A DNA stretch of 48,366 nucleotides, taken from NCBI GenBank assembly GCA_017623895.1, contig JAGAOB010000013.1:1-48366 (forward strand), given 5' to 3'. The DNA comes from Clostridia bacterium. Lineage in GTDB: Bacteria; Bacillota; Clostridia; Oscillospirales; UBA644. Positions 34,248 through 48,366 of this stretch are shown piece by piece (the first letter of the stretch is position 1; every line of letters starts with the position of its first letter). The position numbers were made by a program, and so were the translations under genes. The notes below the pieces were generated by a model that saw only the letters and a program-made list of their open reading frames with translations, was not told the origin of the DNA and did not search any database.

Positions 34248-34958
34248 ATGGTTTTATTTCCTGCCATTGACCTTTACCAAGGCAAGGCCGTCCGTTTATT
34301 GCGGGGAGATTATGAAAAAATGACCGTTTACAGCAACGATCCTCCCGAAATTGCAAAAAAATTCAAGGAAGCGGGGGCAACCCATCTTCATTTAGTGGAT
34401 TTGGAGGGAGCAAAAAACGGTGAGACCCCCAACCTGGAGACGATCAAATCCATCCTTGCGCAAACCGATCTGTTCACCGAGGTGGGAGGCGGGATTCGCA
34501 GTATGCAGGTCATTGACCGCTATCTTTCCGCGGGGGTCGACCGCGTCATTCTCGGAACTGCCGCAGTGACGGAGGAAGGCCTTGTGAAAGAAGCCGTTGC
34601 CCGATACGGAGACAAAATCGCGGTGGGCGTGGACATCAAGGACGGCTGTGTTGCCATCAAGGGATGGACCGAAACCTCGGGGATCGACGCCGTTTTCTTT
34701 TGCGAAAAAATGCAACGCCTCGGCGTTTCTACTCTGATCTGCACCGACATTTCCAAGGACGGTATGATGCAGGGAACCAATCGGGAGCTGTACCGCAAGC
34801 TGTCGGAGCAGTTTTCCATCAACCTCATCGCATCGGGCGGCGTTTCCACGCTGGACGACGTGAAGGCTCTGGCAGAAATGAATTTGTACGGTGCCATCAT
34901 CGGGAAGGCCTATTACACGGGAGCCATTGACTTGAAGGAGGCCATCGCCTTACTATGA
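34248..34958 (+). CDS. hisA: ProFAR isomerase
   Basis: PAIDL..GK.VRL..G, VDLEGA, VGGGIR, TDISKDG, ASGG. Confidence 0.95.
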   Translation: MVLFPAIDLYQGKAVRLLRGDYEKMTVYSNDPPEIAKKFKEAGATHLHLVDLEGAKNGETPNLETIKSILAQTDLFTEVGGGIRSMQVIDRYLSAGVDRVILGTAAVTEEGLVKEAVARYGDKIAVGVDIKDGCVAIKGWTETSGIDAVFFCEKMQRLGVSTLICTDISKDGMMQGTNRELYRKLSEQFSINLIASGGVSTLDDVKALAEMNLYGAIIGKAYYTGAIDLKEAIALL

Positions 34959-35713
34959 TTACCAAGCGCATCATCCCCTGTCTGGATGTAAAAGACGGCA
35001 GAGTGGTCAAGGGCGTAAACTTCCTCGGTCTTGCCGACGTCTCCTCTCCTGTATCGCTGGCCAAATACTACAGCGAGTGCGGCGCCGACGAGTTGGTGTT
35101 TTACGACATTACCGCCTCCGCAGAGGGCCGGGGTCTGTTTACCGATATTCTCCGCGAGGTAGCAAGCACAATCTTTATCCCCCTTACCGTGGGAGGCGGA
35201 ATCAACACCCTGGAGGACTTTGACCGCGTGCTGAAATGCGGTGCCGACAAGGTCAGCGTCAATTCGGGCGCCATCCGCAATCCCTCCCTTATCGGAGAAG
35301 CGGCAAAGCGGTACGGAGACCAATGCGTAGTCTTATCCGCAGACGTCAAACGGGTAGACGGCGTTTTTCGCGTCTTTTCCAAGGGCGGACGGGAAAACAC
35401 CGGAATGGAAGCCATTGAATGGATCAAGCGGGGCGTGGACGCCGGCGCGGGCGAAGTAGTGGTCAACTCCATCGACACCGACGGCGTAAAAAACGGATTC
35501 GATCTTGAAATGCTGGAGGCGGTCTGCAACGCCGTCAACGTTCCCGTGATCGCTTCGGGCGGCGCGGGAGGCATCGACCATTTCACCCAACTGTTTCGCG
35601 CCATTCCCACCATTGACGCGGGACTTGCGGCATCCATCTTCCATTTCGGAGAGGTTGCCATCCCCGACCTGAAAGAAGAATTGCATAAACAAGGAATTCC
35701 CGTAAGGAGATAA
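34955..35713 (+). CDS. hisF: Imidazole glycerol phosphate synthase, cyclase subunit
   Basis: RIIPCLDVKDGRVVKG, GADELVFYDITAS, PLTVGGGI, ASGGAG, AASIFH. Confidence 0.95.
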   Translation: MITKRIIPCLDVKDGRVVKGVNFLGLADVSSPVSLAKYYSECGADELVFYDITASAEGRGLFTDILREVASTIFIPLTVGGGINTLEDFDRVLKCGADKVSVNSGAIRNPSLIGEAAKRYGDQCVVLSADVKRVDGVFRVFSKGGRENTGMEAIEWIKRGVDAGAGEVVVNSIDTDGVKNGFDLEMLEAVCNAVNVPVIASGGAGGIDHFTQLFRAIPTIDAGLAASIFHFGEVAIPDLKEELHKQGIPVRR

Positions 35714-35716
35714 ATT

Positions 35717-36367
35717 ATGATCAATATCAACGAATTGAAATTTGACGAAAAGGGCTTGATTCCCGCCATCGTAGTGGACGCAAAAACCAAAGACGTCCTG
35801 ACCCTGGCGTATATGAACAGGGAGAGCCTTGAAATCAGCATTAAAGAAGAAAAAACCTGCTTTTGGTCCCGTTCCCGCAACGAACTGTGGAGAAAGGGAG
35901 AGACCTCGGGCAATTATCAGCATATCGTTTCTATCACCGCCGATTGCGACAAGGACGCGCTGACGGTCGTCGTGGAAAAGGACGGCCCTGCCTGCCATCT
36001 GGGGGCAGAATCCTGCTTCCATAATCCCATCTTTGAAAGCGACGAGAGACAGGCATTTTCTCTGCAATCCTTGATGACCCTCATCGAGGGCAGAAAAACC
36101 GAGAAAAAAGAAGGCTCGTACACCACCTACCTTTTTGAAAAAGGAATCGACAAGATTCTGAAAAAGGTCGGAGAGGAATGCACCGAGGTCATTATCGCAG
36201 GCAAGGCGGACGACAAAAAGGAAACCATCTACGAAATTGCCGATTTGACCTATCACGTGATGGTTCTGATGATCGAAATGGGAATCTCCCTTCAGGACAT
36301 TCACGACGAGCTTGCCTCCCGTCACGTCATCGACAAAAAGGTCAAGCAGGAAAAAATGACGAAATAA
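35717..36367 (+). CDS. hisIE: Bifunctional PR-AMP cyclohydrolase / PR-ATP pyrophosphatase
   Basis: [39 protein letters not shown]. Confidence 0.95.
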
Positions 36368-36372
36368 CGATA

Positions 36373-36449
36373 AAGTCCGACGCAAAGTTCAGCGTCGGAC
36401 TTTTTTCTGAAAATAAACCACTCCGCCCAAGGAATTGGGCGGAGTTTTT
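36373..36449. terminator. Pair of terminator hairpins between the his operon and the convergent operon
   Basis: AAGTCCGACGC/GCGTCGGACTT plus T-tract; ACTCCGCCCAA/TTGGGCGGAGT. Confidence 0.75.
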
Positions 36450-36489: not shown

Positions 36490-37329
36490 TTAAACCGTTT
36501 CGGTTTGAAAAATCGAATCAGACAGAGAAAAGAGGCTCTTGGCATTCTTCCAAAAAATCTGCTGACGCTCATCGTCGGTAAGGTTGAGCGCCAAGAAATG
36601 CTCCAGCTCCTCGACGGGAGACCACATCGGGTAATCGGTTCCGTATAAAACCCGATGAACACCGTATTTGTGAATCAGCTCTGCGGCGATCTCGGGGTGC
36701 TTCATAAAGGGGAGGCTGGAGGAACAGTCTACGTAAAGATTGGGATATTTCGCCATTTGTTCCGTGGCATCTTCCCAAATCGACCAGCCTCCGAAATGCG
36801 CACCGATCACCGTTAGATCGGGAAATTGCTCCAGCACGGGAATCAAGCGGTTTGGGTTGGAATAATCGTACCGATAATCCCCCGTGTGCATCAATACGGG
36901 CAGTCCCTCTTTTTCACAGCAGGCGTACATTTTCAAAAACCCCGCGTGATCCAAGGGACGGGCTTGAATATCGGGATGAATCTTAATTCCCTTTAAGCCC
37001 AAGGCCTTCAGGTGGGAAATTTCCCCCTCAATATCCTCACATTCGGGGTGCATCGTTCCTAGCCCCGTCAGCCGTCCTCCCGCCGCAGCCACGGAGGCTG
37101 CGATGAACTCGTTAATAGAACGAACCTGCTTTGGAGTGGTGGCAACCGATTGCACGATAAAGTGATCGGTTCCCGCCCTCACCCCAACCTCCAAAAGCTC
37201 ACCGATGGTCCCTTGAGGACAGCGGGCTGTAGTCCCATAAAAGGCGTCGGTACCCGCCACGGCTCGCGCGGCAATCTTTTCGGGGTATATATGACAATGT
37301 GCGTCAATAACAAAGCTTCCGTTTACCAT
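36490..37329 (-). CDS. Amidohydrolase_2 family TIM-barrel metalloenzyme
   Basis: IDAHCH, GIKIHP, MHTG, AHFGG, YGTDYP. Confidence 0.85.
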   Translation of the reverse strand: MVNGSFVIDAHCHIYPEKIAARAVAGTDAFYGTTARCPQGTIGELLEVGVRAGTDHFIVQSVATTPKQVRSINEFIAASVAAAGGRLTGLGTMHPECEDIEGEISHLKALGLKGIKIHPDIQARPLDHAGFLKMYACCEKEGLPVLMHTGDYRYDYSNPNRLIPVLEQFPDLTVIGAHFGGWSIWEDATEQMAKYPNLYVDCSSSLPFMKHPEIAAELIHKYGVHRVLYGTDYPMWSPVEELEHFLALNLTDDERQQIFWKNAKSLFSLSDSIFQTETV

Positions 37330-37408
37330 CGGTTAATCCTTCTTCTGCGGTATTCTTTCGGAGTTCGCACGGCAGTGCGCGTCGACGGCGACGCCGTTTT
37401 TTCGTCGG

Positions 37409-39916
37409 TCAATCCTTCTTCAGACCCAATTTTTCCACCGCGTCCTCCCGCATTTTGTATTTCAGGATTTTTCCTGCGGCGTTCATCGGAAAACGGTCCA
37501 CAAAGTCCACGTAGCGGGGGACCTTGTGCCGTGCCATATTGGCATTGATGTAGGCCTTCATTTCATCGGAGGTCATCGTTTCTCCCTCCTTGAGGATGAT
37601 GCAGGCCATAATTTCCTCCCCGTACTGCTTATCGGGGACTCCGATGACCTGAACATCCCGAACCTTGGGGTGGGTATAGATAAATTCCTCGATTTCCTTG
37701 GGGTAGATATTCTCTCCTCCGCGGATGATCATATCCTTCAATCTTCCCGTGATGTTGTAATTTCCCTCGGGGGTGCGGCAGGCAAGGTCGCCCGTGTGCA
37801 GCCAACCGTCCTTGTCGATGGCGGCGGCGGTGGCTTTGGGCATTTTATAATACCCTTTCATAATGTTATAGCCGCGGGCAACGAATTCTCCGTTCACACC
37901 GTCGGGACAGTCTTCACCCGTCTCGGGATCGACGATCTTACATTCTACGTTTGCAAAGGCAGATCCCACGGTTTCGGTGCGAACCTCAAGGGAATCGTAA
38001 TAGCTGGACATCGTGCATCCGGGGGATGCCTCGGTCTGACCGTAAACCGAAACGATCTCTCTCATATTCATATTGTCGGGCTGTGCCGCCTGCTTCATCA
38101 GGTCGGCGGGACAGTTCGCCCCTGCCATAATTCCGATGCGCATATAGGAAAAGTCTGTCTTCTTGAAATCCTCGTGCTGCATCATTGCAATGAACATCGT
38201 GGGCACTCCGTTGAACGCCGTAATATGCTCGTTGTGCACACACGCCAAGGCAGGCTTGGGCGAGAAATAGGGCAAGGGGTACATCGTCGCTCCGTGGGTC
38301 ATCGACGCGGTCATCGACAGCACCATTCCGAAGCAGTGGAACATCGGGACTTGAATCATCATACGGTCCGCCGTAGACAAATCCATGTGGTCTCCGATAT
38401 ATTTTCCGTTGTTGACCACGTTGTAGTGGGTCAGCATCACGCCCTTGGGAAATCCCGTGGTTCCCGACGTATATTGCATATTGCAAACGTCGTCCTTATC
38501 CACCAATGCGGCCATACGGGCAACCTCGGCCAAGGGGACCTGGGGGGCGCGGGCAAGGGCTTCTTCCCACGTCATGCACCCCGCTTGACGGAATCCTACG
38601 GTGATCACGTTCCGCAAGAAGGGAAGGCGACGGGCGTGAAGGGCATCCCCCGACTTCATCGTCTCCAATTCGGGGCAGAGCTGAGAAATAATCTGACCGT
38701 AATGATTGTCCTTTCCGCCCTCGGTAAGAATCAGCGTATGGGTATCGGATTGACGAAGCAGGTACTCCACCTCCGCGATCTTATACGCGGTGTTGACGGT
38801 GACCAGCACCGCACCGATCTTTACCGTCGCCCAAAAGGCAATGTACCATTGGGGCACGTTAGAGCACCAAACGGCAACGTGATGTCCGGCCTTGACCCCC
38901 ATAGAAATCAAAGAACGGGCAAAGGTATCCACGTCATCGCGAAATTCGCTGTAGGTACGGGTATAGTCCAAGGTCGTATACTTGAAGGCGTATTGATCGG
39001 GGAATTCCTCCACCATACGGTCGAGGACCTGGGAAAAGGTCAGATCGATCAGAAGATCCTTTTTCCACACGAATTTTCCCGTCCGTGCCCGATTGTAATA
39101 CAGGGTCTTCTCGTTACGGGAGGTGTCGTTGTATTGCTTCATATAATTGACGAATTGGGTGAAGATGATCTCCATATCGTCCAATTCCTCAAGCCACTTC
39201 GGATCCCAGACCAAGGAAATAAAGCCGTCGTAATTAACCGACCGAAGGGCAAGCATCATTTCGGAAACGGGTAATTCACCCTCCCCCGCAAGGCGGTATT
39301 CAATTCCGTCTTCGGTCTTAACCCCGTCGCTGAACTGCACGTGCTTGAGATACGCTCCCAGATTCTGAATGATTTGTTCGGGAGTTTCTCCTCCGTCGAA
39401 GTAGGCAGCGGAAAGATTCCACAAGGCAGCAAGACGGTCGCTGGCAAAGCGGTTGAGCATTTCCCTCAATACGCAGGTTTTCGCGAAAACGCCCGACGTT
39501 TCTAACAACAGAGTCACGCCCCGCTCCTCCGCCTCGGGCAGAACCAAGGCAATGCGGCGGACAATTCCCTCCGGGGAAGAACCGTCGTGGGAAATTGCTT
39601 TCAGACGAACGTTGGGGATATGAAGATTCCCCGCAATGGCAAGACAGCGGCGGATCTCATCCACCGTCTCCTCCTCCTTGGAATCATCGGCAAGGTCGCA
39701 CAGCGTGTCAATGCAGGGAATCTGCAGCTTTTTCTCATACAACCGACGGAGCGTTGCGGCGGCGGCATAATCGTGAAACGCCCCGTCGCGATCGGTAAAC
39801 AGGCGATTGTTGACGTTATGTAATTCGATGCCGCCGAAGGACAGATCCACGGCAACGTCGCAAAATTCTTCAAAGGTGCTCTCGTGCCACCCACGGGTGG
39901 AAAAAGAAAGTTTCAT
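37409..39916 (-). CDS. Fusion of a xylose-isomerase/AP-endonuclease-2-like TIM barrel and an acyl-CoA synthetase (AMP-binding)
   Basis: N-terminal KLSFST.G...GIEL...GEG.LP...YDG; C-terminal YTSGTTGFPKG, YGQTE, WLHTGD, GR.KDMIIRGGENIYP.EIE, GKI.K; ATG 39916 after GAGGAGG. Confidence 0.85.
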   Translation of the reverse strand: MKLSFSTRGWHESTFEEFCDVAVDLSFGGIELHNVNNRLFTDRDGAFHDYAAAATLRRLYEKKLQIPCIDTLCDLADDSKEEETVDEIRRCLAIAGNLHIPNVRLKAISHDGSSPEGIVRRIALVLPEAEERGVTLLLETSGVFAKTCVLREMLNRFASDRLAALWNLSAAYFDGGETPEQIIQNLGAYLKHVQFSDGVKTEDGIEYRLAGEGELPVSEMMLALRSVNYDGFISLVWDPKWLEELDDMEIIFTQFVNYMKQYNDTSRNEKTLYYNRARTGKFVWKKDLLIDLTFSQVLDRMVEEFPDQYAFKYTTLDYTRTYSEFRDDVDTFARSLISMGVKAGHHVAVWCSNVPQWYIAFWATVKIGAVLVTVNTAYKIAEVEYLLRQSDTHTLILTEGGKDNHYGQIISQLCPELETMKSGDALHARRLPFLRNVITVGFRQAGCMTWEEALARAPQVPLAEVARMAALVDKDDVCNMQYTSGTTGFPKGVMLTHYNVVNNGKYIGDHMDLSTADRMMIQVPMFHCFGMVLSMTASMTHGATMYPLPYFSPKPALACVHNEHITAFNGVPTMFIAMMQHEDFKKTDFSYMRIGIMAGANCPADLMKQAAQPDNMNMREIVSVYGQTEASPGCTMSSYYDSLEVRTETVGSAFANVECKIVDPETGEDCPDGVNGEFVARGYNIMKGYYKMPKATAAAIDKDGWLHTGDLACRTPEGNYNITGRLKDMIIRGGENIYPKEIEEFIYTHPKVRDVQVIGVPDKQYGEEIMACIILKEGETMTSDEMKAYINANMARHKVPRYVDFVDRFPMNAAGKILKYKMREDAVEKLGLKKD

Positions 39917-39918
39917 TC

Positions 39919-41298
39919 TCAAGCCTCCTCGTAAACGATCTTATTGACGGCGTTGATATAGGCACGAATCCCCGCACCGACGATGTCGGTGGAAATTCCG
40001 TTGCCCGAATACAGCCTTCCGTTGGAGCGAAGCTTTACGATGGCAGACCCTACCGCTTCCTTTCCTTCCGTAACCGATTGAATCTGAAAATCGTCCAATT
40101 CATAGTGGTGGCCGATGATCTGCTCAATGGCCTTAAATGCGGCGTCCATCGGACCGTCTCCGATGCAGATGCCGGGTAATTCCTTCCCGTCCCGCTCCAG
40201 AGTGATCTGGGCACTGGCAGAAATAATATTGCCGTTGTTGATCACGTAGCTTTTCAGCTTATAAGAAGCGGGAACCTGCAGCGCTACGCTGGCAACGATG
40301 GCCTCCAGCTCCTTAGCACCCACGGTTTTACGGTCCGCCACCCGCTGAAACTCTTCGTAGACCCGTCCGTTGTCTTCCTCGGAAAGATCGTAGCCCAAAT
40401 TCATCACCGCGGCAGTAACGGCGTCTTGGTCGTCACTCTTATCCAGATGGATCGTCTGATCGGGTACCGAAGCGGCGGGGGCTACGGGACGATCGCTTTT
40501 GGAATTTCCCGCAATCCAACGGATCTGTCCGACGGTACGGTGAAGCTCGGTTACGCGGACGGTAGAAGAAAACCCGTAGGTATTTCCGCAATTTTGAATC
40601 ATACCCAAGAAGGTTTCCAGAGAAACGCCGTCTCCCTCCACGCAGGTCTTGACGCAATCCGCCCCTGCCCGAACGGCAAGAATGGCGCAGGCGCAGGCAA
40701 GTCCGTTTTTATCGCTGCAACGAACGCTGACAGGGACCGCACAGATCTCCTTGATCCCTGCGGCAAAGCGGGCAAAATCATCGGGCATCATTTCCGCGGC
40801 GCTGTCGCAGACCGAAACCTGGGTAGCCCCCGCAGAAACGGCGGCGACAACGGCAGATTTCAAGAACTCCGATTCAGCGCGGGTGGCGTCCACGGCACAA
40901 AATTCCACGTCAGCGCAAGCCTGCTTGGCAGCGGCAACGGCGGAGGAAATGAACTCCAGCATCTTGGGAGGTTTTTTGTGACTCAAATACTCCATTCCCA
41001 CGGGAGAAAGCGGAACCTCCACACGAATCCGAGAATGAGAAGCACCCGAAAGGGCCTGCAGGGCGTTATCCAAACTGTCGGGAGCAACCCCGACGGCGAC
41101 GGAAAGGATCGCGTTTTTCACAAAAGACGACAAGGTACGAACAAGTAGAATATCCGTTTTTCCGTTCCGAATTTCGGGAAGCTCGATCACGTCAACGGAA
41201 AGGCGTTCCAGCTGACGGGCAATTTCGATCTTCTCCTTGAACGTGTACGCACTGCCTTCCTTGCAGAGCGTCGTGTCTGAAATAACGATTTTCTTCAT
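39919..41298 (-). CDS. 2-isopropylmalate-synthase-like protein with a degenerate catalytic barrel and an intact LeuA regulatory domain
   Basis: SDTT, EKIEIARQLE, DATRAE, GDGPMDAAF, STDIV...AYINA.NK retained; LRDGEQ, HxH, GERAGN and HESGIH absent. Confidence 0.8.
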   Translation of the reverse strand: MKKIVISDTTLCKEGSAYTFKEKIEIARQLERLSVDVIELPEIRNGKTDILLVRTLSSFVKNAILSVAVGVAPDSLDNALQALSGASHSRIRVEVPLSPVGMEYLSHKKPPKMLEFISSAVAAAKQACADVEFCAVDATRAESEFLKSAVVAAVSAGATQVSVCDSAAEMMPDDFARFAAGIKEICAVPVSVRCSDKNGLACACAILAVRAGADCVKTCVEGDGVSLETFLGMIQNCGNTYGFSSTVRVTELHRTVGQIRWIAGNSKSDRPVAPAASVPDQTIHLDKSDDQDAVTAAVMNLGYDLSEEDNGRVYEEFQRVADRKTVGAKELEAIVASVALQVPASYKLKSYVINNGNIISASAQITLERDGKELPGICIGDGPMDAAFKAIEQIIGHHYELDDFQIQSVTEGKEAVGSAIVKLRSNGRLYSGNGISTDIVGAGIRAYINAVNKIVYEEA

Positions 41299-41426
41299 AA
41301 TGATATTCTCCTTTTGCGTTTTTCTTGTTCGTAACATACTTGCGTTCGGTGAAAAAAGTACAAAGCCCCGGGGTCGGCTTACACCGACTCCGGGACCGCA
41401 GAAGCGATAGGTTATCGCTCTATTTC

Positions 41427-42494
41427 TCAATCAATGGGGCAAGTCCAGCCGAAGGGATCTTCGATCTTTCCCCATTGGATACCGGTCAGGGTGTCATACA
41501 GGTGTTGGGTGACGGCGCCGATTTTTCCGTCGTTGATAATATATTTGGTTCCTTTGTAGCATAGCTCGCCGATGGGGGAAACCACTGCAGCAGTTCCGCA
41601 GCCCCAAGCCTCTTCCAGCGTTCCGTTGGATAGGGCCTCTGCCAATTCGTCCACGCTCAATAGGCGCTCGCTGACCTTGTAGCCCTCCTTACGAAGGACT
41701 TCAAGGCAGGATTTTCGGGTAATTCCGGGTAGGATCGAGCCGGAAAGCATAGGCGTGACGATTTCGCCGGCAATCTTGAACATAACGTTCATTGCGCCGA
41801 CTTCTTCAATATACTTGCGTTCCACACCGTCCAGCCAGAGAACCTGGGAATAGCCCTTCTTCTCTGCCCGTTCTCCGGCACGGTTGCTGGCGGCGTAGTT
41901 TCCGCCGCATTTTGCATAGCCCGTACCGCCACGAACGGCACGGACGTCTTCGTCCTCGATCATAATGCGAACGGGATTGATCCCTTCCTTGTAATAGCTC
42001 CCCACGGGAGAAGCGATAACGACGAAGGTGGCATTATGAACCGCGTGAACCCCCAACGTTTCGTCGTTTCCAAACAAAAAGGGACGGAGATACAGGGACG
42101 TTCCGGGGGCGGAGGGCGTCCAATCCTGCTCCATCTTCACAAACTCGGTCAGGGCTTGATACGCATCCTGCTCGGGAATCTGAGGCAGACAAAGACGCTC
42201 CGCAGAATTATTCAGACGGCGGATATTCTCCATAGGACGGAACAGCTGAACCTTCCCGTCGGCACGGCGGTACGCCTTCAGACCCTCGAAAATTTCAGAG
42301 CCGTAGTGCAAAACCGTAGACGCGGGATGGAGGGAAAGATTGGCAAAGGGCACGATGCGTGCATCGTACCAGCCCTTTTCCCGAGAATAATCCATAATAA
42401 ACATATGATCGGTAAAAAACTTTCCGAATCCAAGGGTGGAAGCCTCGGGCTTTTCCTTGGGCGCGGTGGTTTTCGTAACGGAAATATTCAACAT
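41427..42494 (-). CDS. ilvE: Branched-chain amino acid aminotransferase
   Basis: FTDHMF, LHYG..FEGLKAY, LYLRP, AKCGGNYA, EVGAMN, ILPGITR, GTAAVVSP. Confidence 0.95.
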   Translation of the reverse strand: MLNISVTKTTAPKEKPEASTLGFGKFFTDHMFIMDYSREKGWYDARIVPFANLSLHPASTVLHYGSEIFEGLKAYRRADGKVQLFRPMENIRRLNNSAERLCLPQIPEQDAYQALTEFVKMEQDWTPSAPGTSLYLRPFLFGNDETLGVHAVHNATFVVIASPVGSYYKEGINPVRIMIEDEDVRAVRGGTGYAKCGGNYAASNRAGERAEKKGYSQVLWLDGVERKYIEEVGAMNVMFKIAGEIVTPMLSGSILPGITRKSCLEVLRKEGYKVSERLLSVDELAEALSNGTLEEAWGCGTAAVVSPIGELCYKGTKYIINDGKIGAVTQHLYDTLTGIQWGKIEDPFGWTCPID

Positions 42495-42508
42495 AGCCAA
42501 AGCTCCTT

Positions 42509-43042
42509 TCAATAATCTGCGCCCAGCTTCATCGTGTTGAGATTGATCTCAAGCATATCGGCACGCTTGGCGGAGATGACTTTCCCCAAGGCGGTGCGGA
42601 CGCTGTCCTCGTCAAAATCGTTGAGGACCTTCAGAATCTTCCCTACCAGAATCATATTGGCAAGGGTGGGAGTCCCGTTATCGCTTGCCATCTGAGTGGC
42701 GGGAACGGGATAAACCGTCACGTCGGTACGGTTGACGGAACGGGAAACCAAGGTAGAATCGACGAAAATGATTCCACCGGGGGCCACGGAGGATTCGTAT
42801 TTATCCAGAGAAGGCAGGTTCATTGCAACCAAAACGTCGGGGCGGGAAACGATGGGAGATCCCACGGTTTCGTCTCCCACGATCACACCGCAGGACGCAG
42901 TGCCACCCCGCATTTCGGGGCCGTAGGAGGGAAGCCAGCTGACGTTTTTGCCATCCATCAATCCCTTATACGCAATAAATTTACCCGCAAACAGGATACC
43001 CTGTCCGCCGAAGCCGGAAAAGAGAAATTGTTTCGTGCTCAT
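42509..43042 (-). CDS. 2-oxoacid:ferredoxin oxidoreductase gamma subunit
   Basis: GFGGQG, PSYGPEMRGG, ANMILVG. Confidence 0.9.
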   Translation of the reverse strand: MSTKQFLFSGFGGQGILFAGKFIAYKGLMDGKNVSWLPSYGPEMRGGTASCGVIVGDETVGSPIVSRPDVLVAMNLPSLDKYESSVAPGGIIFVDSTLVSRSVNRTDVTVYPVPATQMASDNGTPTLANMILVGKILKVLNDFDEDSVRTALGKVISAKRADMLEINLNTMKLGADY

Positions 43043-43797
43043 TTCGTTTCCTCCTTTGCGGCAGACCGATCCTTATACACGCCCAAGGGGTAGTAGGGGA
43101 TCATCTTCTCGTCGATCCACTCCAGCGCCTTTTGGGGCGTCATTCCCCAGTTGGTGGGGCAGGACGAAAGGACCTCAACCAGGGAGAATCCCTTGCCGTC
43201 GATCTGATTTTGGAACGCCTTCTTAATAGCGGCCTTTGCAGTTTTGATATTCTTTACGCTGTTGACGGTGACACGGGTCAAATATTCGGGGCCGTCCAGC
43301 TCGGAGAGCAACTCACAAACCTTAATGGGGAATCCGCAATGATTGGTATCGCGGCCGTAGGGGGAGGTCTGGGTCACCTGTCCGGGAAGGGAGGTGGGAG
43401 CCATCTGACCGCCCGTCATTCCATAAATGGCGTTGTTAATAAAAATAACGGTGATGTTTTCGTTGCGGGCGGCGGCGTGAACCGTTTCCGCCATTCCGAT
43501 AGAGGCCAGATCACCATCGCCCTGATAAGTAAAGACCACGTGGTTTTCCGGATCGGCACGCTTTACCCCCGTAGCAACAGCAGGTGCCCGTCCGTGGGCC
43601 GCCTCGATCATATCGCAGGCAAAATAATTATACGCCATAACGGAGCAACCGACGGGAGCGACGCCGATGGTCTTTCCCTCAATCCCCAGCTCGTCGATGA
43701 CTTCGGCGACGAGGCGGTGAACGATCCCGTGAGTGCATCCGGGACAATAATGCATAGGAGCGTCGGTTAACGCGTGGGGCTTATCAAATACAACCAT
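43039..43797 (-). CDS. 2-oxoacid:ferredoxin oxidoreductase beta (TPP-binding) subunit, Vor type
   Basis: YCPGCTHG, VGC, HGRA, YQGDGD...INNAIYGMTGGQ, CPTNW. Confidence 0.92.
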   Translation of the reverse strand: MVVFDKPHALTDAPMHYCPGCTHGIVHRLVAEVIDELGIEGKTIGVAPVGCSVMAYNYFACDMIEAAHGRAPAVATGVKRADPENHVVFTYQGDGDLASIGMAETVHAAARNENITVIFINNAIYGMTGGQMAPTSLPGQVTQTSPYGRDTNHCGFPIKVCELLSELDGPEYLTRVTVNSVKNIKTAKAAIKKAFQNQIDGKGFSLVEVLSSCPTNWGMTPQKALEWIDEKMIPYYPLGVYKDRSAAKEETK

Positions 43798-44870
43798 TAG
43801 TTGGCACCTCCGATCTTGGCAGCGGCAGTACGGATGGATTCCAGAACCTGCTCGGGAGAAGGGATCATTCCGCCCACCCGATTGCACAGGGTGACGGGAA
43901 CCTTACATTCGGTAGCAAGACGAACGTCCTCGATCATCTGTCCCATAGACAGCTCCACGGAGATCATCGCCTTGACTTGATCTGCGGCCTTGCGGAAGGG
44001 TACAACGGGGAAGGGCCACAGGGTGATGGGACGAATCATACCAACCTTGATGCCATCCTTGCGGGCCTCGTCGATGGCGTTCTTGGAAACGCGGGCGGCA
44101 ATTCCGAAGGCGGCAATGGCGATGTCTGCATCGTCCATCAAATATTCCTCGTACATCGTTTCGTTTTCTTCGATGGTCTTGTAACGGTCGAAGCGTTCAA
44201 AATTGGTTTGCTCCAACGCAGCAGGATCCAAGAAAAGGGAGTTGACGATATTGTGCTCCCGTTCCAGCTTCGTGCCCGTCGTTGCCCAAGGCTTTTCTAC
44301 GGGAGCACCCACCTTCAGCTCGTTGAGAGCTACAGGCTCCATCATCTGTCCCATCGTACCGTCGGCCAAAAGCATCGTAGTCATCCGATATTTGTCCGCA
44401 AGGTCAAAGCCCTTGACGGTCAGCTCTGCCATTTCCTGTACCGACGCGGGGGCAAGAACAATCATCTTGAAATCGCCGTGTCCGCCTGCGCGAGTCGCTT
44501 GGAAATAATCCGACTGGCTGGGCTGGATTCCGCCCAAGCCGGGACCACCCCGCTGAACATTGACCACCAACGCGGGAAGGTCGGATCCTGCAAGATAAGA
44601 CAACCCCTCCCCTTTCAGGGAAATTCCCGGGCTGGAGGACGAGGTCATAACCCGTTTGCCCGTAGAGGCAACGCCGTAGACCATATTGATGGCGGCGATT
44701 TCACTCTCCGCCTGCAAAAAGCATCCGCCGATCTTGGGCATCCGCTTTGCCATATAAGCGGCAACCTCCGTTTGGGGAGTAATGGGATAGCCGAAATAAT
44801 GACGGCAGCCCGCAATGATCGCGGCTTCCGCAATGGCTTCGTTGCCCTTCATCAAAACTTTATCAGACAC
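43797..44870 (-). CDS. vorB: 2-oxoisovalerate:ferredoxin oxidoreductase alpha subunit
   Basis: MKGNEA, GYPITPQ, QAESE, TSSSSPG, RGGPGLG.IQP.Q.DY, GGHGD; start GTG 44870 (alternative 44879). Confidence 0.85.
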   Translation of the reverse strand: MSDKVLMKGNEAIAEAAIIAGCRHYFGYPITPQTEVAAYMAKRMPKIGGCFLQAESEIAAINMVYGVASTGKRVMTSSSSPGISLKGEGLSYLAGSDLPALVVNVQRGGPGLGGIQPSQSDYFQATRAGGHGDFKMIVLAPASVQEMAELTVKGFDLADKYRMTTMLLADGTMGQMMEPVALNELKVGAPVEKPWATTGTKLEREHNIVNSLFLDPAALEQTNFERFDRYKTIEENETMYEEYLMDDADIAIAAFGIAARVSKNAIDEARKDGIKVGMIRPITLWPFPVVPFRKAADQVKAMISVELSMGQMIEDVRLATECKVPVTLCNRVGGMIPSPEQVLESIRTAAAKIGGAN

Positions 44871-44879
44871 GGTAATCAC

Positions 44880-45086
44880 TCACCTTTCCACTTTGATAAC
44901 GCAGTCGGGACACATCGTTGCGCAGAACGCACATCCCACGCAGGCGGCCTCGTCGGTCAATACCGCAGGGTGATGTCCCTTTTTGTTGATTTGGTCGGGA
45001 GCCAGCTGCAAAAGCTTTTTCGGGCAGGCATCCACGCACAATCCGCAGCCCTTGCAGGAGTCAGTCTTAAAGGTTAATTTTGCCAT
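44880..45086 (-). CDS. 2x[4Fe-4S] ferredoxin (oxidoreductase delta subunit)
   Basis: CKGCGLCVDACP and CVGCAFCATMCP. Confidence 0.92.
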   Translation of the reverse strand: MAKLTFKTDSCKGCGLCVDACPKKLLQLAPDQINKKGHHPAVLTDEAACVGCAFCATMCPDCVIKVER

Positions 45087-45130
45087 ACTACATCTCCGTT
45101 CGAATAGAATGTCGGGGACAATTCCCCACA

Positions 45131-45793
45131 TTACAATTTTTTCTGAAGTTCCAGAGGGAACAGATTTTCAATTTTTCCTTGCAGTTTCGGGAATATTTCT
45201 TTGGGGACAGAGGTCATAACCACGGGAATCGACATCAGATTTGAAACCGTTTCGGCATAAGAAACCGAATCAAAAATCACGTCGGGATCGGTTTCGCGTC
45301 CCAGGTTGGTGTTGTTTACGATCCCCGTAAAGGGAATCCCGCCCGCCGCCTCGATTTCCCGCAGAACGTCCACGGTATCTTGGGGCGTACGGGTCAAAGG
45401 ACGGGAAGCGTTGATCACCGCGAGCATTTCGTAATCCTTTTCCTCTAAAATCCGAGGAGCGATACGACCCAACGCCAAAGCCCCCCGATCGTCTCCCCCC
45501 ACGTCGATGACCACGCGCAGGTCCTTGTCATCGGTCACGGCGTACATATCCTGGGGCAGGGCAGGGAGATCCACGTTGGTGTTGGCGTATTCGGAACAGA
45601 TCAGGCGAATGCCCAGATCCTCGAATTGCCCCCGACTGTCCTTGGAGCGAAAATAGGGATTGACAATGTCCAGATCCGCCACCGCAACCCGCGGATAGCG
45701 TTCCCGCAGAGCGACGGCAAGGTTCACCGCCACGTTGGTTTTCCCGCTTCCGTAATGCCCGCAAAGCAGGGTAATTCGCTTAAAGTCTCTCAT
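45131..45793 (-). CDS. P-loop NTPase (MinD/ParA-like) associated with vor genes
   Basis: GHYGSGKT, DLDIVNPYFRS, DVGGD; alternative in-frame start at 45850. Confidence 0.75.
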   Translation of the reverse strand: MRDFKRITLLCGHYGSGKTNVAVNLAVALRERYPRVAVADLDIVNPYFRSKDSRGQFEDLGIRLICSEYANTNVDLPALPQDMYAVTDDKDLRVVIDVGGDDRGALALGRIAPRILEEKDYEMLAVINASRPLTRTPQDTVDVLREIEAAGGIPFTGIVNNTNLGRETDPDVIFDSVSYAETVSNLMSIPVVMTSVPKEIFPKLQGKIENLFPLELQKKL

Positions 45794-45855
45794 AGGCTTT
45801 TTCTGCTTGGCGATTCCCGCAGGGCGGGAGAATCGCGTGAAGTCTTTCATAAGTA

Positions 45856-48144
45856 TCACAATTTGTTTCGCTGGATCTTTCCGCTGACCGATTTGGGTAA
45901 CGCGTCGCGGAAGACCACGATGCGGGGGTATTTGTAGGGTGCGGTTTTTTGCTTGACGTAGGTCTGAATTTCTTTTTTCAGATCCTCGGTAGGCTCGGTG
46001 CCGTTGACAAGAACGATGGATGCCTTAACCACCTGCCCCCGAACCTCGTCGGGCTCGGCGGAAACGCCACATTCCAGGACGTAGGGCAATTCCATAATTA
46101 CGCTTTCGATTTCAAAGGGGCCGATACGGTAGCCAGAGGATTTGATCACGTCGTCGGCTCTACCTACGTACCAGAAGAATCCGTCCTCGTCCTTCCACGC
46201 CACGTCGCCCGTGTGGTAATAGCCGTCGTGCCAATTCTCGGCGGTCTTTTCCTCGTCGCCGTAATATCCCACGGCAAGTCCGCAGGGATGTCCGTTCTTG
46301 AGATTGACCACGATCTCCCCCGTTTCTCCCACGGGGACCTGATTGCCGTCGGCATCGTGCAGCTCCACGTCGTAAACGGGAACCTTTCGACCCATAGATC
46401 CGATCTTGTGGGGAGCCCCGACCAGATTGCCGATCATCATCGTGCTTTCGGTCTGACCGAAGCCTTCAATGATCTGCAGGCCCGTCGCCTTTTCGAACTG
46501 ACGGTACACCTCGGGGTTCAGAGCCTCACCTGCCGTGGTCATATGCTTAACCGACGAGAAATCGTATTTGGAAATATCCTGCTTGATCATCATCCGCAGC
46601 ATCGTAGGCGGCGCACAGAAGGTGGTGATCCGATGCTCGGCAAACATAGGCAGAATATCGGCGGCGTCGAAACGGCCAAAGTCGTAGACGAAAATTGCCG
46701 CCTCACAGAGCCATTGTCCATAGAGCTTGCCCCACATTGATTTTGCCCAACCCGTGTCGGAGATGGTGAAGTGCAAGCCGTCGGGGTCCACGTTGTGCCA
46801 ATACTTTGCGGTATGGAAATGTCCCAAGGGATATTTATAGTTATGTGCCGCCAGCTTGGGATATCCCGAAGTGCCCGAGGTAAAGAACATCAGCATCAGA
46901 TCTTCGCCGCAGGGTGCGTCCTCGGGGCGGTTGTAATGGGTGCTGTACAGCGGATACTCCTCATCGAAGCACCGCCAGCCCTCGCGGGTGCCATTGACCA
47001 AGATCTTATGCTTCAGATCGGGGCATTTTTCTGCGGCAATCTCCACCTGACGGGCCGTATCTCCGTCTGCGGTACAAAGGATGGCGGAGACTCCTGCACA
47101 TTGAAAACGGTATTCAAAATCGTGCTCCTGCAGTTGGTTGGTGGCAGGAATGGCGATGGCGCCAAGCTTGTTCAGTCCCATCATCGCGAACCAGAATTGA
47201 TAGTGGCGCTTCAGTACCAGCATCACCCGATCGCCCTTTTTGATTCCAAGGGATTTGAAATAGTTCGCACATTGGGAAGAAGCCTTTTTGATATCCTTGA
47301 AGGTCAGCCGACGGACGGTCTTGTCCTTGGAGATGTGAAGCATCGCCAATTTTTCGGGCTCTCGCTCCGCCAAGGCGTCCACAAGATCAAAGGCAAAGTT
47401 AAAGGTTTCGGTATTTTTGAATTGAATGGAGGTTGGCGTTCCGTTTTCATCCTCGGTAACGTCGATAAATTTGCGGTAAATGCGGTCCTTCGTATCGAAG
47501 GTCTTGACCCGCTTTTCCGAAACGGATTTGACCTCGGTCAGCTCGGGAATAGGTTCTCCCGTAGGATTGAGAACGATAGCGTAAAAGATACAGTCCTGTC
47601 CATTGACGGCGATCATCCCGTGGGGGGTATCGGAATCAAAATAGATACTGTCGCCGGGGCCGAGCACTTCCTTGTGCTCTCCGACCTGAACCATCAGATT
47701 TCCTTCGATGATAAGGTCGCACTCCTGCCCCGCGTGGGTGGTCAGCTCGATCTGCTTGTTCTGTGCCTCGGGGTCGTAGACGCTGCGAACGTACAGAGGC
47801 TCGGCGATGCGGTCCCGAAAGGCATAGGCAAGATTGTAATAGGTCATCCCGTGCGCCTTGGAGACCTCCTGCCCCGCCCCCTTGCGGGTAACGGTGTAGG
47901 ATTGCAGTTTGGGGCTCTGCCCCTCGATAATATCGGTGACGTTGACCTTCAACGCCATAGCGCACCGATAGATAAACGCAAAGTTCAGATCGCTTTTCCC
48001 TGCTTCACATTGCAGGTATTCGGCTTCGGACACGCCCGTTTGTGCCGCCATTTCCGCGGCGGACAAGCCCTCCAGCTGACGCAGCTCGCAAATGCGCCCT
48101 GCCATCTCACGGATCTTGACATCAAGTCCGCTGATTTGTTCCAT
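45856..48144 (-). CDS. Fusion of XRE HTH, cupin and medium-chain acyl-CoA synthetase
   Basis: RI.ELR..EG.S..EMA...GVS...Y...E.G (XRE); H.GQE...G...LGPGDSIYFDS..PHG (cupin); FTSGTSGYPK, GFGQTE, YHTGD, GRADD.IKSSGYRIGPFE, LPKS.SGKI.R; RBS AGGAG. Confidence 0.9.
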   Translation of the reverse strand: MEQISGLDVKIREMAGRICELRQLEGLSAAEMAAQTGVSEAEYLQCEAGKSDLNFAFIYRCAMALKVNVTDIIEGQSPKLQSYTVTRKGAGQEVSKAHGMTYYNLAYAFRDRIAEPLYVRSVYDPEAQNKQIELTTHAGQECDLIIEGNLMVQVGEHKEVLGPGDSIYFDSDTPHGMIAVNGQDCIFYAIVLNPTGEPIPELTEVKSVSEKRVKTFDTKDRIYRKFIDVTEDENGTPTSIQFKNTETFNFAFDLVDALAEREPEKLAMLHISKDKTVRRLTFKDIKKASSQCANYFKSLGIKKGDRVMLVLKRHYQFWFAMMGLNKLGAIAIPATNQLQEHDFEYRFQCAGVSAILCTADGDTARQVEIAAEKCPDLKHKILVNGTREGWRCFDEEYPLYSTHYNRPEDAPCGEDLMLMFFTSGTSGYPKLAAHNYKYPLGHFHTAKYWHNVDPDGLHFTISDTGWAKSMWGKLYGQWLCEAAIFVYDFGRFDAADILPMFAEHRITTFCAPPTMLRMMIKQDISKYDFSSVKHMTTAGEALNPEVYRQFEKATGLQIIEGFGQTESTMMIGNLVGAPHKIGSMGRKVPVYDVELHDADGNQVPVGETGEIVVNLKNGHPCGLAVGYYGDEEKTAENWHDGYYHTGDVAWKDEDGFFWYVGRADDVIKSSGYRIGPFEIESVIMELPYVLECGVSAEPDEVRGQVVKASIVLVNGTEPTEDLKKEIQTYVKQKTAPYKYPRIVVFRDALPKSVSGKIQRNKL

Positions 48145-48169
48145 AAAAGTTTCTCCTATCCGGGACGAA

Positions 48170-48366
48170 AATAAAAACACACCCGTCCCAAAGCTGATAA
48201 AACCTTGAGACGAGTGCCTGTTGCATCCATAACACCCGCGGTACCACTCAAATTGCGGAAAACCCGCCTCTCTTGAGGTCCAACAACCCCTATGCCTTTA
48301 CGCAGCAATCACGGGGAGATTCTACCGACCCTTTGAAGGGTGTTCTTTCTCCCGACTCGGAAGTGA
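48170..48366 (-). promoter_or_regulatory. T-box riboswitch (5'-truncated by the window edge) with terminator
   Basis: Minus strand: stem II with S-turn (GAA...GGTA), AATTTGAGTGGTACCGCG T-box at 48237-48254, terminator CACTCGTCTCAAGG/CTTTGGGACGGGTG followed by a T-rich tract. Confidence 0.9.

Follow-up and report, generated by a model that had tools for sequence, protein, structure and literature searches.

The window, i.e. the whole stretch of DNA analysed here (48,366 nucleotides), corresponds to one entire contig (C26) of a Clostridia bacterium genome with a completeness of 81%. Ten cluster genes lie on its minus strand, and their domain and family matches bear out the gene content and order of the initial annotation. 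In the order of transcription, they encode an acyl-CoA synthetase (ACS1), a P-loop protein, the four subunits of a 2-oxoisovalerate:ferredoxin oxidoreductase (Vor), the aminotransferase IlvE, a LeuA-derived protein (LeuA*), a second synthetase (ACS2) and an amidohydrolase (Table 1). Compared with the closest relative (L010, ~84% nucleotide identity), dN/dS was 0.004-0.096 for all nine genes compared.

Table 1. Features of the cluster and of its leader (positions in the window, unless contig C45 is given).
Feature	Position	Strand	Basis
T-box leader, 5' half with specifier	C45:1-124	-	22.8 bits, E 0.048; cut by contig end
T-box leader, 3' half (Stem II/III region, T-box sequence AGUGGUACCGCG, antiterminator)	48203..48366	-	RF00230, 31.4 bits, E 3.2e-05, model positions 92-219; 5' end cut by contig end
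T-box terminator helix, 17 pairs, then U-run; overlaps antiterminator 3' side	48179..48217	-	Terminator detection and sequence
ACS1: XRE-type HTH (HTH_3, PF01381), Cupin_2 (PF07883), AMP-forming acyl-CoA synthetase (PF00501, PF13193)	45856-48144	-	Pfam domains
P-loop SIMIBI-class NTPase	45131-45793	-	Weak CbiA/ParA match, CbiA 27.9 bits
2x[4Fe-4S] ferredoxin, delta subunit of 2-oxoacid:ferredoxin oxidoreductase	44880-45086	-	Fer4 families; PorD/KorD-type matches under cut-offs
Vor alpha	43797-44879	-	POR_N, PFOR_II; NF005507 (VorB subfamily) 538.2 bits, cut-off 399
Vor beta, TPP-binding	43039-43800	-	TPP_enzyme_C; PorB_KorB-type matches
Vor gamma	42509-43042	-	PF01558 POR, 124.8 bits
IlvE, branched-chain aminotransferase, class IV	41427-42494	-	NF009897 483 bits, cut-off 307; TIGR01123 398.9 bits, cut-off 250
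GC-rich hairpin and U-run, terminator-like, in 129-nt ilvE/LeuA* gap	41352..41397	-	Fold; only partly picked up by terminator detection
LeuA*, 2-isopropylmalate-synthase-derived	39919-41298	-	HMGL-like PF00682 104.9 bits; LeuA_dimer PF08502 104.4 bits
ACS2: xylose-isomerase-like TIM barrel (39107-39916) and AMP-forming acyl-CoA synthetase (37409-39049)	37409-39916	-	PRK12583 650 bits, under 832 cut-off
Amidohydro_2 (PF04909), metal hydrolase/decarboxylase-family	36490-37329	-	139.6 bits, cut-off 26.4
Two terminator-like hairpins ending the transcription unit	36372..36445	-	Terminator detection

A domain test for VOR found the full set of four subunits (alpha, beta, gamma, delta), the TPP and Fe-S domains, and a family model match above the cut-off. 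The operon partners and the T-box suggest that this enzyme acts on branched 2-oxoacids and acyl-CoAs, probably in the reductive direction. The P-loop gene lies inside the Vor module in every locus with a complete module; the predicted model of its product (pLDDT 86.5) gave Foldseek matches to SRP GTPases and ATPase-type HypB, with TMq of 0.5-0.6.

The ligase domain of ACS1 matches MacsMa (PDB 3ETC) with 612.7 bits. The top NCBIfam match is MbcS (NF047394) both for ACS1 (415.8 bits) and for ACS1' (442 bits), a paralogue encoded on contig C45, just upstream of the window; both scores are under the cut-off of 850. ACS1 and ACS1' share an N-terminal HTH and cupin module of ~230 residues. MacsMa favours 2-methylbutyrate as substrate (PMC10455477); MbcS activates 2-methylbutyrate and isobutyrate and acts poorly on isovalerate (PMC10026030).

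The T-box noted in the initial annotation is, by its sequence, a real leader cut by the contig end, but only its 3' half lies in the window. At the Rfam gathering threshold (93 bits for RF00230), a search of the whole window gave no match, and the 3' half surfaced in a search by E-value; both halves score far under this threshold. The element at 48203-48366 has the conserved UGGN-ACC motif of T-boxes within its antiterminator, with which the terminator and its U-run compete. The other half opens contig C45, whose first 36 nt are the last 36 nt of C26. Given this overlap, and since gene order across the junction is collinear in L010, the two contigs are probably adjacent. The C45 half, which carries ...GAGAGA..GGUUGGUG...UUU GUC A CUUC, provides Stem I with the AG bulge, the distal-loop motifs and the specifier plus purine. 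The specifier of the window leader, located outside the window, is thus GUC (Val), a branched-chain amino acid codon as the initial annotation had anticipated. The unbroken orthologous T-box of L010 (76.5 bits) has GUC as well. The specifier register was checked in the same genome, where ACC was read before thrS (gene read by eye) and UGG before a trpB-like gene; genes for tRNA-Val(GAC) and tRNA-Leu(GAG) are present. T-boxes respond to uncharged tRNA and not to lipid status, and we propose that the window leader acts by tRNA-dependent antitermination.

This leader is one of several. On C45, a second T-box precedes ACS1', with the specifier AUC (Ile). Among the relatives, almost all of which are ruminant or other animal-gut MAGs, ACS1' leaders read AUC in 7 of 7 cases and ACS1 leaders specify Val in 20 of 20 (19 GUA, 1 GUC). 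The synthetase tree resolves two clades with 100/100 support, one with 8 Ile and 4 unseen leaders, the other with 20 Val and 2 unseen, so that the Val specifier follows the ACS1 clade. Moreover, a third T-box is found ahead of LeuA* in 48 of 50 relatives. The LeuA* leaders specify Leu in 71 of the 72 examined (69 CUC, 2 CUG), the remaining one being unreadable. Within each leader class the codon changes are synonymous, the amino acid staying the same. A single contig of one relative (L014) carries all three T-boxes, none of them under the Rfam gathering score (96.3, 93.7 and 117.7 bits, the second being the unbroken orthologue of the window leader). A TTGACA-17-extended-10 promoter of its own was present for every one of 29 leaders of ACS1 and ACS1' that were examined. 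Instead of one T-box and two synthetases of different specificity, as first described, there are three synthetases, and the relatives have a T-box with the matching codon for each of Ile, Val and Leu.

The picture of genes tightly packed behind one T-box has to be revised accordingly. Besides the paralogue with its own T-box just upstream, the window has a hairpin with a U-run between ilvE and LeuA*. This hairpin is kept in L010, at the place where 48 of 50 relatives have the Leu T-box; no T-box was found in the gap of the window. ACS2 directly follows LeuA* in 80 of 80 loci. The LeuA*, ACS2 and amidohydrolase genes occur without adjoining Vor and IlvE in 21 of 50 relatives, so the single unit gives way to a locus of at least two modules. 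At its far end, the hairpin at 36420-36445 is bidirectional and faces hisIE.

The description of LeuA* as a degenerate LeuA holds. Its best equivalog match (NF002086) reaches 273.9 bits for a cut-off of 532, and it falls under every equivalog cut-off. In the alignment with 3RMJ, DTTLC----KEG stands in place of DTTLRDGEQ and RCSDKNG in place of HCHNDLG, which removes what we take to be the substrate and metal residues of LeuA (R and D of RDGEQ, both His of HxH). The motifs RDG[EN]Q and HxH(N)D are kept in 0 of 79 family members. The metal/substrate site of LeuA* is dead, as judged from these motifs. Its LeuA_dimer regulatory domain is almost invariant, and dN/dS relative to L010 is 0.065.

The genome check suggested in the initial annotation, here covering ilvB, ilvC, ilvD, leuB and leuC, is in line with a lost de novo pathway. 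The window genome (81% complete) yielded no ilvB, ilvC, ilvD or leuB; its sole leuB-like match (131.7 bits) lies beside an aconitase. leuC was not recognised there either: the single aconitase-family match adjoins an icd-like gene. The two other HMGL-like genes of this genome are OadA-like and aldolase-like. Similarly, none of five same-genus genomes (93-96% complete) yielded ilvC, ilvD or leuB. In a survey of 26 genomes of the family, each with a completeness of 90% or more, only four have ilvC and ilvD. Of the 22 others, 20 have Vor alpha, which occurs in one of these four. LeuA* occurs in 10 and true leuB in 11 of these 26 genomes with an overlap of 0, and all 10 genomes carrying LeuA* have Vor.

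We consider it likely that the organism, its de novo ilv/leu pathways having been lost, uses the locus for salvage, turning isobutyrate into Val, 2-methylbutyrate into Ile and isovalerate into Leu. A branched acid would be converted to its acyl-CoA by an AMP-forming synthetase, the acyl-CoA would be reductively carboxylated to the 2-oxoacid by the four-subunit VorDABG with reduced ferredoxin, and IlvE would transaminate the 2-oxoacid to the amino acid. We retained the core of this reading, already put forward in the initial annotation, because the specifier is that of a branched-chain amino acid, the ilv/leu genes were not found and the ACS1 ligase is close to enzymes for alpha-branched acids. 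This core withstands the refuting test that the annotation had set and is well supported, and the earlier interpretation stands in part, the pathway itself being one that we infer. We found no published description of this gene set and its regulation. If the proposal is correct, this gut Clostridia bacterium, in whose genome the usual branched-chain pathways were not found, takes up the carbon skeletons of Val, Ile and Leu as short branched fatty acids and rebuilds the amino acids from them.

The activation step would be the seat of both specificity and control, with three synthetases, each having its own promoter and a transcription-terminating T-box naming the product. The AUC (Ile) T-box would control ACS1' on C45, the GUC/GUA (Val) T-box would control ACS1, the P-loop protein, VorDABG and IlvE, and the CUC/CUG (Leu) T-box of the relatives would control LeuA*, ACS2 and the amidohydrolase. 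In each case, the uncharged tRNA would stabilise the antiterminator and transcription would continue. Since Vor and IlvE lie solely behind the Val T-box, starvation for Ile or Leu alone would not induce them. In the window lineage, which has the terminator-like hairpin in place of the Leu T-box, the LeuA* module may be reached by read-through or by an unseen promoter.

The substrates of the three synthetases, like the direction of Vor, are deduced from these associations. Homology and the Val and Ile specifiers suggest that ACS1 and ACS1' prefer isobutyrate or 2-methylbutyrate, and we propose that ACS1, under the Val T-box, is an isobutyrate-CoA ligase. ACS2 is proposed as an isovalerate-CoA ligase from the Leu T-box and the complementarity with leuB only; the poor handling of isovalerate by MbcS fits the presence of a different type of ligase behind the Leu T-box.

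The reactions of both IlvE and Vor can run either way, and Vor is known above all for the oxidative one. The same genes could consequently run from branched-chain amino acids through 2-oxoacids and acyl-CoAs to branched acids, as in amino-acid fermentation. We regard such a catabolic role as extremely unlikely, as induction by uncharged tRNA would then break down the scarce amino acid, AMP-forming ligases activate acids and do not conserve ATP, and no other route to branched-chain amino acids was found in the genome. It is also very improbable that the synthetases chiefly make branched acyl-CoA primers for membrane fatty acids, with amino acids secondary: the leaders sense uncharged tRNA and not lipids, their specifiers match the amino acid of each acid, ACS1 is predicted to share one transcription unit with Vor and IlvE, and presence is complementary to ilvCD and leuB. 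What speaks for it is that the top family match of ACS1 and ACS1' is MbcS of S. aureus, whose demonstrated role is to supply such primers for lipid synthesis (PMC10026030).

Several observations count against salvage. Among them are the low scores of the two T-box halves, a contig junction deduced from overlap and gene order, the genome completeness of 81%, and the placement of Vor and IlvE behind the Val T-box alone. In the window genome, LeuA* and ACS2 lack a T-box and lie after a terminator-like hairpin; ACS1, ACS1' and ACS2 all score under the curated thresholds of their nearest families; and the conserved LeuA*, TIM domain, amidohydrolase and P-loop protein are superfluous to a three-step route. 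The LeuA* module might respond to Leu but do more than activate isovalerate, making a precursor of Leu out of some other compound; the TIM domain, the amidohydrolase and possibly a LeuA* barrel put to new use would then be the enzymes. These three conserved parts have no place between acid and amino acid in the salvage scheme. The amidohydrolase follows ACS2 in 56 of the 62 loci with enough sequence; it retains an N-terminal HxH motif (IDAHCHI), its closest solved relative being the uncharacterised BB4693. The closest solved structures to ACS2 are fatty-acyl- and feruloyl-CoA synthetases, at only ~260 bits, and the module often stands apart from Vor and IlvE, as mentioned above. The initial annotation had both synthetases fused to apparently non-catalytic domains; for ACS1 the fused part is a regulator-like HTH-cupin module and no pseudoenzyme, whereas for ACS2 the claim is upheld. 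Compared with MJ1311 (3WQO) and Art22 (8Z1I), the PF01261 domain of ACS2 keeps E139 and H192, but D is replaced by N167 and E by V236, so two of the four ligands (presumably E, D, H and E) are gone in the window and most relatives. Five of 22 aligned relatives (L077, L073, L042, L062 and L063) have all four, which speaks for the other-precursor reading. Overall, we judge this other-precursor role rather unlikely, given these ligand losses, the absence of the canonical motifs from LeuA* in 79 of 79 sequences, the presence of Vor in every LeuA* genome of the family, as carboxylation of isovaleryl-CoA would require, and a search for recurrent extra neighbours of the module that found none, just unrelated Met genes.

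The proposed salvage system can be compared with several known ones. Leu T-box control of branched-chain genes is known in Firmicutes from the B. subtilis ilv-leu operon. Like it, the leaders described here are of the transcription-terminating type, have a branched-chain specifier and would turn supply genes on when the tRNA is uncharged. They differ in that they would control salvage genes (synthetase, Vor and IlvE) and not ilv/leu, the three leaders splitting the route by substrate. Two members of the family retain ilv-leu operons, and no T-box was found in these regions of either.

LeuA* shares the HMGL-like barrel and the C-terminal allosteric LeuA_dimer domain with LeuA and citramalate synthase, and its GDGP.DA stretch aligns weakly (E 0.47) to the regulatory domain of the Leptospira citramalate synthase 3F6G. 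Unlike these enzymes, it has lost the RDGEQ stretch by deletion or replacement and has other residues for both His of HxH, and it occurs only where leuB was not found. ACS1 is homologous to MacsMa of M. acetivorans and to MbcS, both of which are reported to favour alpha-branched C4/C5 acids. In contrast to them, ACS1 and ACS1' have an HTH and cupin module, lie behind T-boxes and fall under the MbcS cut-off, and MbcS feeds lipid synthesis. As in the archaeal/Thermotoga-type four-subunit VOR, the alpha, beta, gamma and delta subunits form one run, with alpha above the NF005507 cut-off; here, however, a Val T-box precedes them, a synthetase, an aminotransferase and a P-loop NTPase accompany them, and the direction is proposed to be reductive.

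A close parallel exists in rumen anaerobes, which carboxylate isobutyrate, 2-methylbutyrate and isovalerate reductively on the way to Val, Ile and Leu, as reportedly established by Allison, Bryant and co-workers in the 1960s. The three substrates and products, the animal-gut habitat and the need for acyl-CoA and a low-potential reductant are common to both. There, it is the chemistry that was defined, whereas here it is a gene set with three tRNA-sensing leaders, proposed from sequence.

The initial annotation had read the end of the window as a T-box-controlled cluster for making branched-chain amino acids (BCAA) from branched acids. Family and domain searches assigned to its ten minus-strand genes domains that agree with the gene list proposed there, including two acyl-CoA synthetases (ACS1 and ACS2), 2-oxoisovalerate:ferredoxin oxidoreductase (Vor), IlvE and a LeuA-like protein. 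The window is one entire contig (C26) of an assembly that comprises 1.50 Mb in 115 contigs, with a completeness of 81% and a contamination of 3.5%. Histidine genes convergent to the cluster have the bidirectional terminator in common with it, and histidine synthesis is retained in an organism where ilv/leu genes were not found.

Features of the cluster, its leaders and related loci (window coordinates unless a contig or locus is named)
Feature	Position	Strand	Description
T-box of ACS1, 3' part	48203-48366	-	31.4 bits, E 3.2e-05, model positions 92-219; 5' end lost to contig end
T-box of ACS1, 5' part	C45, first 124 nt	same as 3' part	22.8 bits, model positions 1-123
Terminator with U-run	48217-48179		17 pairs; overlaps antiterminator 3' side
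Ten open reading frames	48144 down to 36490	-
ACS1		-	HTH_3, Cupin_2 and AMP-binding synthetase
P-loop protein		-	between ACS1 and ferredoxin
Ferredoxin		-	2x[4Fe-4S]
Vor alpha		-	NF005507, 538 bits vs cut-off 399
Vor beta, Vor gamma		-	after Vor alpha
IlvE		-	NF009897, 483 vs 307
LeuA-like protein		-	after IlvE
ACS2		-	xylose-isomerase-like TIM barrel and AMP-binding synthetase
Amidohydro_2 protein		-	last of the ten genes
GC-rich hairpin with U-run	41397-41352		in the ilvE/LeuA-like gap
Two terminator-like hairpins	36372-36445		close the ten-gene run; 36420-36445 bidirectional
hisA, hisF, hisIE	34248-36367	+	convergent to the cluster
384-aa protein gene	C45:3076-4230	+	weak Npun_F2552-family and EFR1-ferredoxin-type matches
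T-box leader (L008)	C7:13962-14252	-
T-box leader (L009)	C100:9750-9920	+
Leader region of relative L021	L021:9670-10000		promoter-like site and different structured leader

At the gathering score, the whole window gave zero RNA family matches in Rfam, and the 3' part of the T-box came from a permissive Rfam search. The first 36 nt of C45, a 5255-nt contig of the same genome, are identical to the last 36 nt of the window. In the closest relative, L010 (~84% nucleotide identity), both contigs map to one contig with alignments overlapping by ~34 nt, and the orthologous leader is uninterrupted (76.5 bits). Given this overlap and synteny, we treated both T-box halves as one leader, across a junction with no read spanning the gap. 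The overlap of the terminator with the antiterminator points to a switch that would work on transcription.

We read as specifier the codon preceding the purine next to the lower helix of Stem I; for the ACS1 leader, the Rfam alignment gives ...UUU GUC A CUUC, in the half carried by C45 and likewise in L010. The T-box of the initial annotation is a real leader, of which the window holds the 3' part only, and its valine specifier provides the relation to BCAA on which the proposed function depended. In the same register, the leader of a putative thrS, identified by eye, reads ACC and that of a putative trpB-like gene reads UGG, and these readings serve as an internal check. At 171 nt, the leader of the trpB-like gene is short, with most of the 3' model region missing in the Rfam alignment. 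The T-boxes found in this genome are these two (L008 and L009) and the leaders of two synthetases.

The second synthetase leader belongs to ACS1', a 761-aa paralogue of ACS1 encoded on C45, which has the same three domains and MbcS as its best NCBIfam match. Its own full T-box (89.1 bits) carries the specifier AUC; the gene for the 384-aa protein diverges from the promoter of this Ile leader. ARAGORN found 42 tRNA genes in the whole assembly and none for tRNA-Ile or tRNA-Trp at 81% completeness; the absent genes are probably unassembled.

A scan with the LeuA-like homologue alignment, using one genome per GTDB species, matched at least 600 stretches, of which at least 589 encode a relative of this protein. 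The best 80 of these loci, our survey set, come nearly all from Acutalibacteraceae, Oscillospiraceae, Ruminococcus or unclassified Clostridia MAGs, mostly of ruminant gut. Specifiers were read at the alignment-anchored position, leaders less than 200 nt from a locus start being excluded. Among these best 80 loci, ACS1' leaders read AUC in 7/7, ACS1 leaders read a Val codon in 20/20 (19 GUA and 1 GUC), and leaders of the LeuA-like gene read a Leu codon in 71/72 (69 CUC and 2 CUG; that of L063 was unreadable). For example, locus L014 has three leaders on a single contig; at 96.3, 93.7 and 117.7 bits, all reach the Rfam gathering score, and their specifiers are AUC, GUA and CUC.

The synthetases follow the same division. 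A maximum-likelihood tree of HTH-cupin-synthetases (n=34) has two clades with 100/100 support and no mixing: one of 12 rows, of which 8 have an Ile leader and 4 a leader that falls outside the locus, and one of 22 rows (20 Val, 2 with the leader unseen). The 29 ACS1/ACS1' leaders examined come each with a separate promoter of ordinary -35 and extended -10 boxes; by eye, these 29 promoter regions showed no palindrome clearly common to them that could be an HTH operator. HTH-cupin is a common regulator architecture. Its fusion to a synthetase is a large family, 4897 candidates giving 4000 clusters with E up to 1e-5, with public names limited to 'AMP-binding protein' or 'cupin domain-containing protein'.

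MbcS is the top NCBIfam family for both ACS1 and ACS1', and the ACS1 ligase domain matches PDB 3ETC (E 4.4e-183, 612.7 bits). This structure is the Methanosarcina acetivorans enzyme MacsMa, which prefers 2-methylbutyrate as substrate (PMC10455477). PMC10026030 reports that MbcS activates 2-methylbutyrate and isobutyrate, isovalerate and butyrate being poor substrates. ACS2 is PRK12583-like (650 bits vs a cut-off of 832), with closest solved relatives at ~260 bits. The MbcS preference fits the observed split of an MbcS-like pair behind Ile/Val leaders and a ligase of another subfamily, ACS2, behind a Leu leader.

Mapping the window proteins onto the best 80 loci revealed two modules. Module A comprises HTH-cupin-ACS1, the P-loop protein, ferredoxin, Vor alpha/beta/gamma and IlvE, often preceded by ACS1'; module B comprises the LeuA-like protein, the TIM barrel-ACS2 fusion and the amidohydrolase. 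Within the best 80, the fusion gene comes after the LeuA-like gene in 80/80 loci, and the amidohydrolase gene is next in 56 of the 62 with enough downstream sequence. The gene content recurs in relatives, but not always as the one unit initially proposed: for 50 of these loci the upstream sequence extends at least 4.5 kb, and modules A and B adjoin, in this order, in 29 of them but not in the other 21. Of the same 50, 48 have a T-box motif ahead of the LeuA-like gene, the exceptions being L010 and L021. The only recurrent neighbours of module B are Met-biosynthesis genes (13-14 loci), which were uninformative. They encode a Cys/Met PLP enzyme together with a homoserine O-acyltransferase and, in L073 and 12-13 other loci, come immediately behind the amidohydrolase gene and on its strand, ~4.7-7.3 kb past the start of the LeuA-like gene.

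The window shares the exception seen in L010. No T-box was found in its 129-nt ilvE/LeuA-like gap, even at E up to 10; the gap contains a hairpin with a U-run that is kept in L010 and was caught in part by a separate hairpin scan. L021 has neither a T-box nor the window's hairpin, and its own structured leader terminates with a different hairpin and a U-run. In the comparison of the window with L010, dN/dS is 0.065 for the LeuA-like gene and 0.049 for ACS2, and 0.004 to 0.096 for module A genes, values by which module B is under purifying selection despite the missing Leu T-box. The idea that the Leu T-box descends from that of a leu operon was unsupported, with no T-box found in the ilv-leu regions of family genomes G003 and G013.

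As to the de novo pathway, whose absence the initial annotation had proposed to check, ilvB, ilvC and ilvD were not found in this genome at 81% completeness, the ilvC search giving an 18-bit match only. The sole leuB-like match (131.7 bits vs a cut-off of 353) is a neighbour of the genome's one aconitase gene and resembles icd. Of the two further HMGL-like genes, one is OadA-like and one weakly aldolase-like. Since the genome is only 81% complete, we also searched 26 family genomes, each at least 90% complete; these are kin, so that the counts serve as description and not as a test. Both ilvC and ilvD occur in 4/26 (G002, G003, G013 and G024). Vor alpha exceeds its cut-off in 21/26: 20 of the 22 without ilvCD and one of the 4 with them. 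A full-length LeuA-like protein (at least 53% identity) is found in 10/26, namely all five of the window's genus, G004, G005, G023, G025 and G026, the G018 copy being split across two contigs. All 10 carriers have Vor. Genomes with leuB above cut-off (11/26) have zero overlap with this set, and 5/26 have neither (G001, G010, G014, G015 and G016). Six genomes (G006-G009, G011 and G017) have leuB above cut-off and Vor, and ilvC and ilvD were not found in them, which suggests that isobutyrate-derived 2-oxoisovalerate feeds a retained leu pathway. Overall, one family would use three strategies: complete synthesis de novo, Vor combined with leuB as a hybrid, and full salvage with Vor and the LeuA-like protein.

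The best explanation for these observations is salvage, in organisms without ilv and, where the LeuA-like protein is present, without leu genes. Acids would be converted to acyl-CoA, then to 2-oxoacids and amino acids, with the entry steps divided among three synthetases switched by three tRNA-specific leaders. The acid-to-amino-acid gene set stands as first described; its two synthetases become three with ACS1'. If the cluster were catabolic, its direction would conflict with the T-box logic, and we consider this unlikely. The synthetases may prime lipid synthesis as a side use. Among the sequencing runs listed, 14 are DNA metagenomes of gut or wildlife, from 8 studies, and none is RNA. Module B, whose chemistry is inferred, is the least secure part of the salvage reading; its tie to Leu, through the specifier and the complementarity with leuB, is strong.

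The LeuA-like protein retains the HMGL-like barrel and the LeuA_dimer domain. In the alignment with Neisseria LeuA (3RMJ), other residues and a deletion of four positions take the place of RDGEQ, and both His of HxH are substituted; either motif is kept in 0/79 family members, while the C-terminal domain is almost invariant in the homologue alignment. By these residues, the protein, whose relatives are publicly named only 'hypothetical protein', is a conserved pseudoenzyme, catalytically dead yet under strong purifying selection. In the TIM domain of ACS2, compared with MJ1311 and Art22, E139 and H192 are kept, with N167 for Asp and V236 for Glu, at what we take to be metal-ligand positions. 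Residues 167 and 236 co-vary: D with E in five deeper-branching relatives (L077, L073, L042, L062 and L063), D with I in L089, and N with V in most others and the window. The closest solved proteins to the TIM domain and the amidohydrolase are uncharacterised or weak matches. The P-loop protein had no PDB sequence match; its model (pLDDT 86.5) is predicted to be a SIMIBI-class NTPase, with only generic SIMIBI/MinD-ParA-type NTPases as structural neighbours (Atlas, Foldseek).

A doubtful, more specific idea is that the LeuA-like protein is a leucine-sensing pseudoenzyme left from the lost leu pathway, shutting off isovalerate activation after translation, and that HTH-cupin ACS1/ACS1' are 'trigger enzymes'. 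The nearly invariant allosteric domain of the LeuA-like protein would bind Leu (or 2-oxoisocaproate) and act by way of the degenerate TIM domain of ACS2, and the HTH-cupin modules would couple ligand sensing to DNA binding or catalysis. If true, the salvage route would combine a tRNA-coded riboswitch layer with a protein layer of recycled enzyme scaffolds.

In open full text (PMC, bioRxiv), we found neither T-box control of a synthetase/Vor/IlvE BCAA set nor a description of codon-matched synthetase paralogues of such sets. The T-box codons act as built-in labels linking synthetase to amino acid, and give three directly testable enzyme assignments, with isobutyrate predicted for ACS1, 2-methylbutyrate for ACS1' and isovalerate for ACS2. 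HTH-cupin-ACS, Vor and the LeuA-like protein, the last with relatives in at least 589 species-level genomes, could be metagenome markers predicting isoacid-dependent taxa. The enzyme families and the T-box logic are already known, and reductive isoacid-to-BCAA chemistry is old knowledge. That fibre-degrading Clostridia of rumen and hindgut require 'isoacids', which are fed to livestock, is long established; within the literature searched, the genes behind this need had not been pinned down so far, and the old question now becomes testable.
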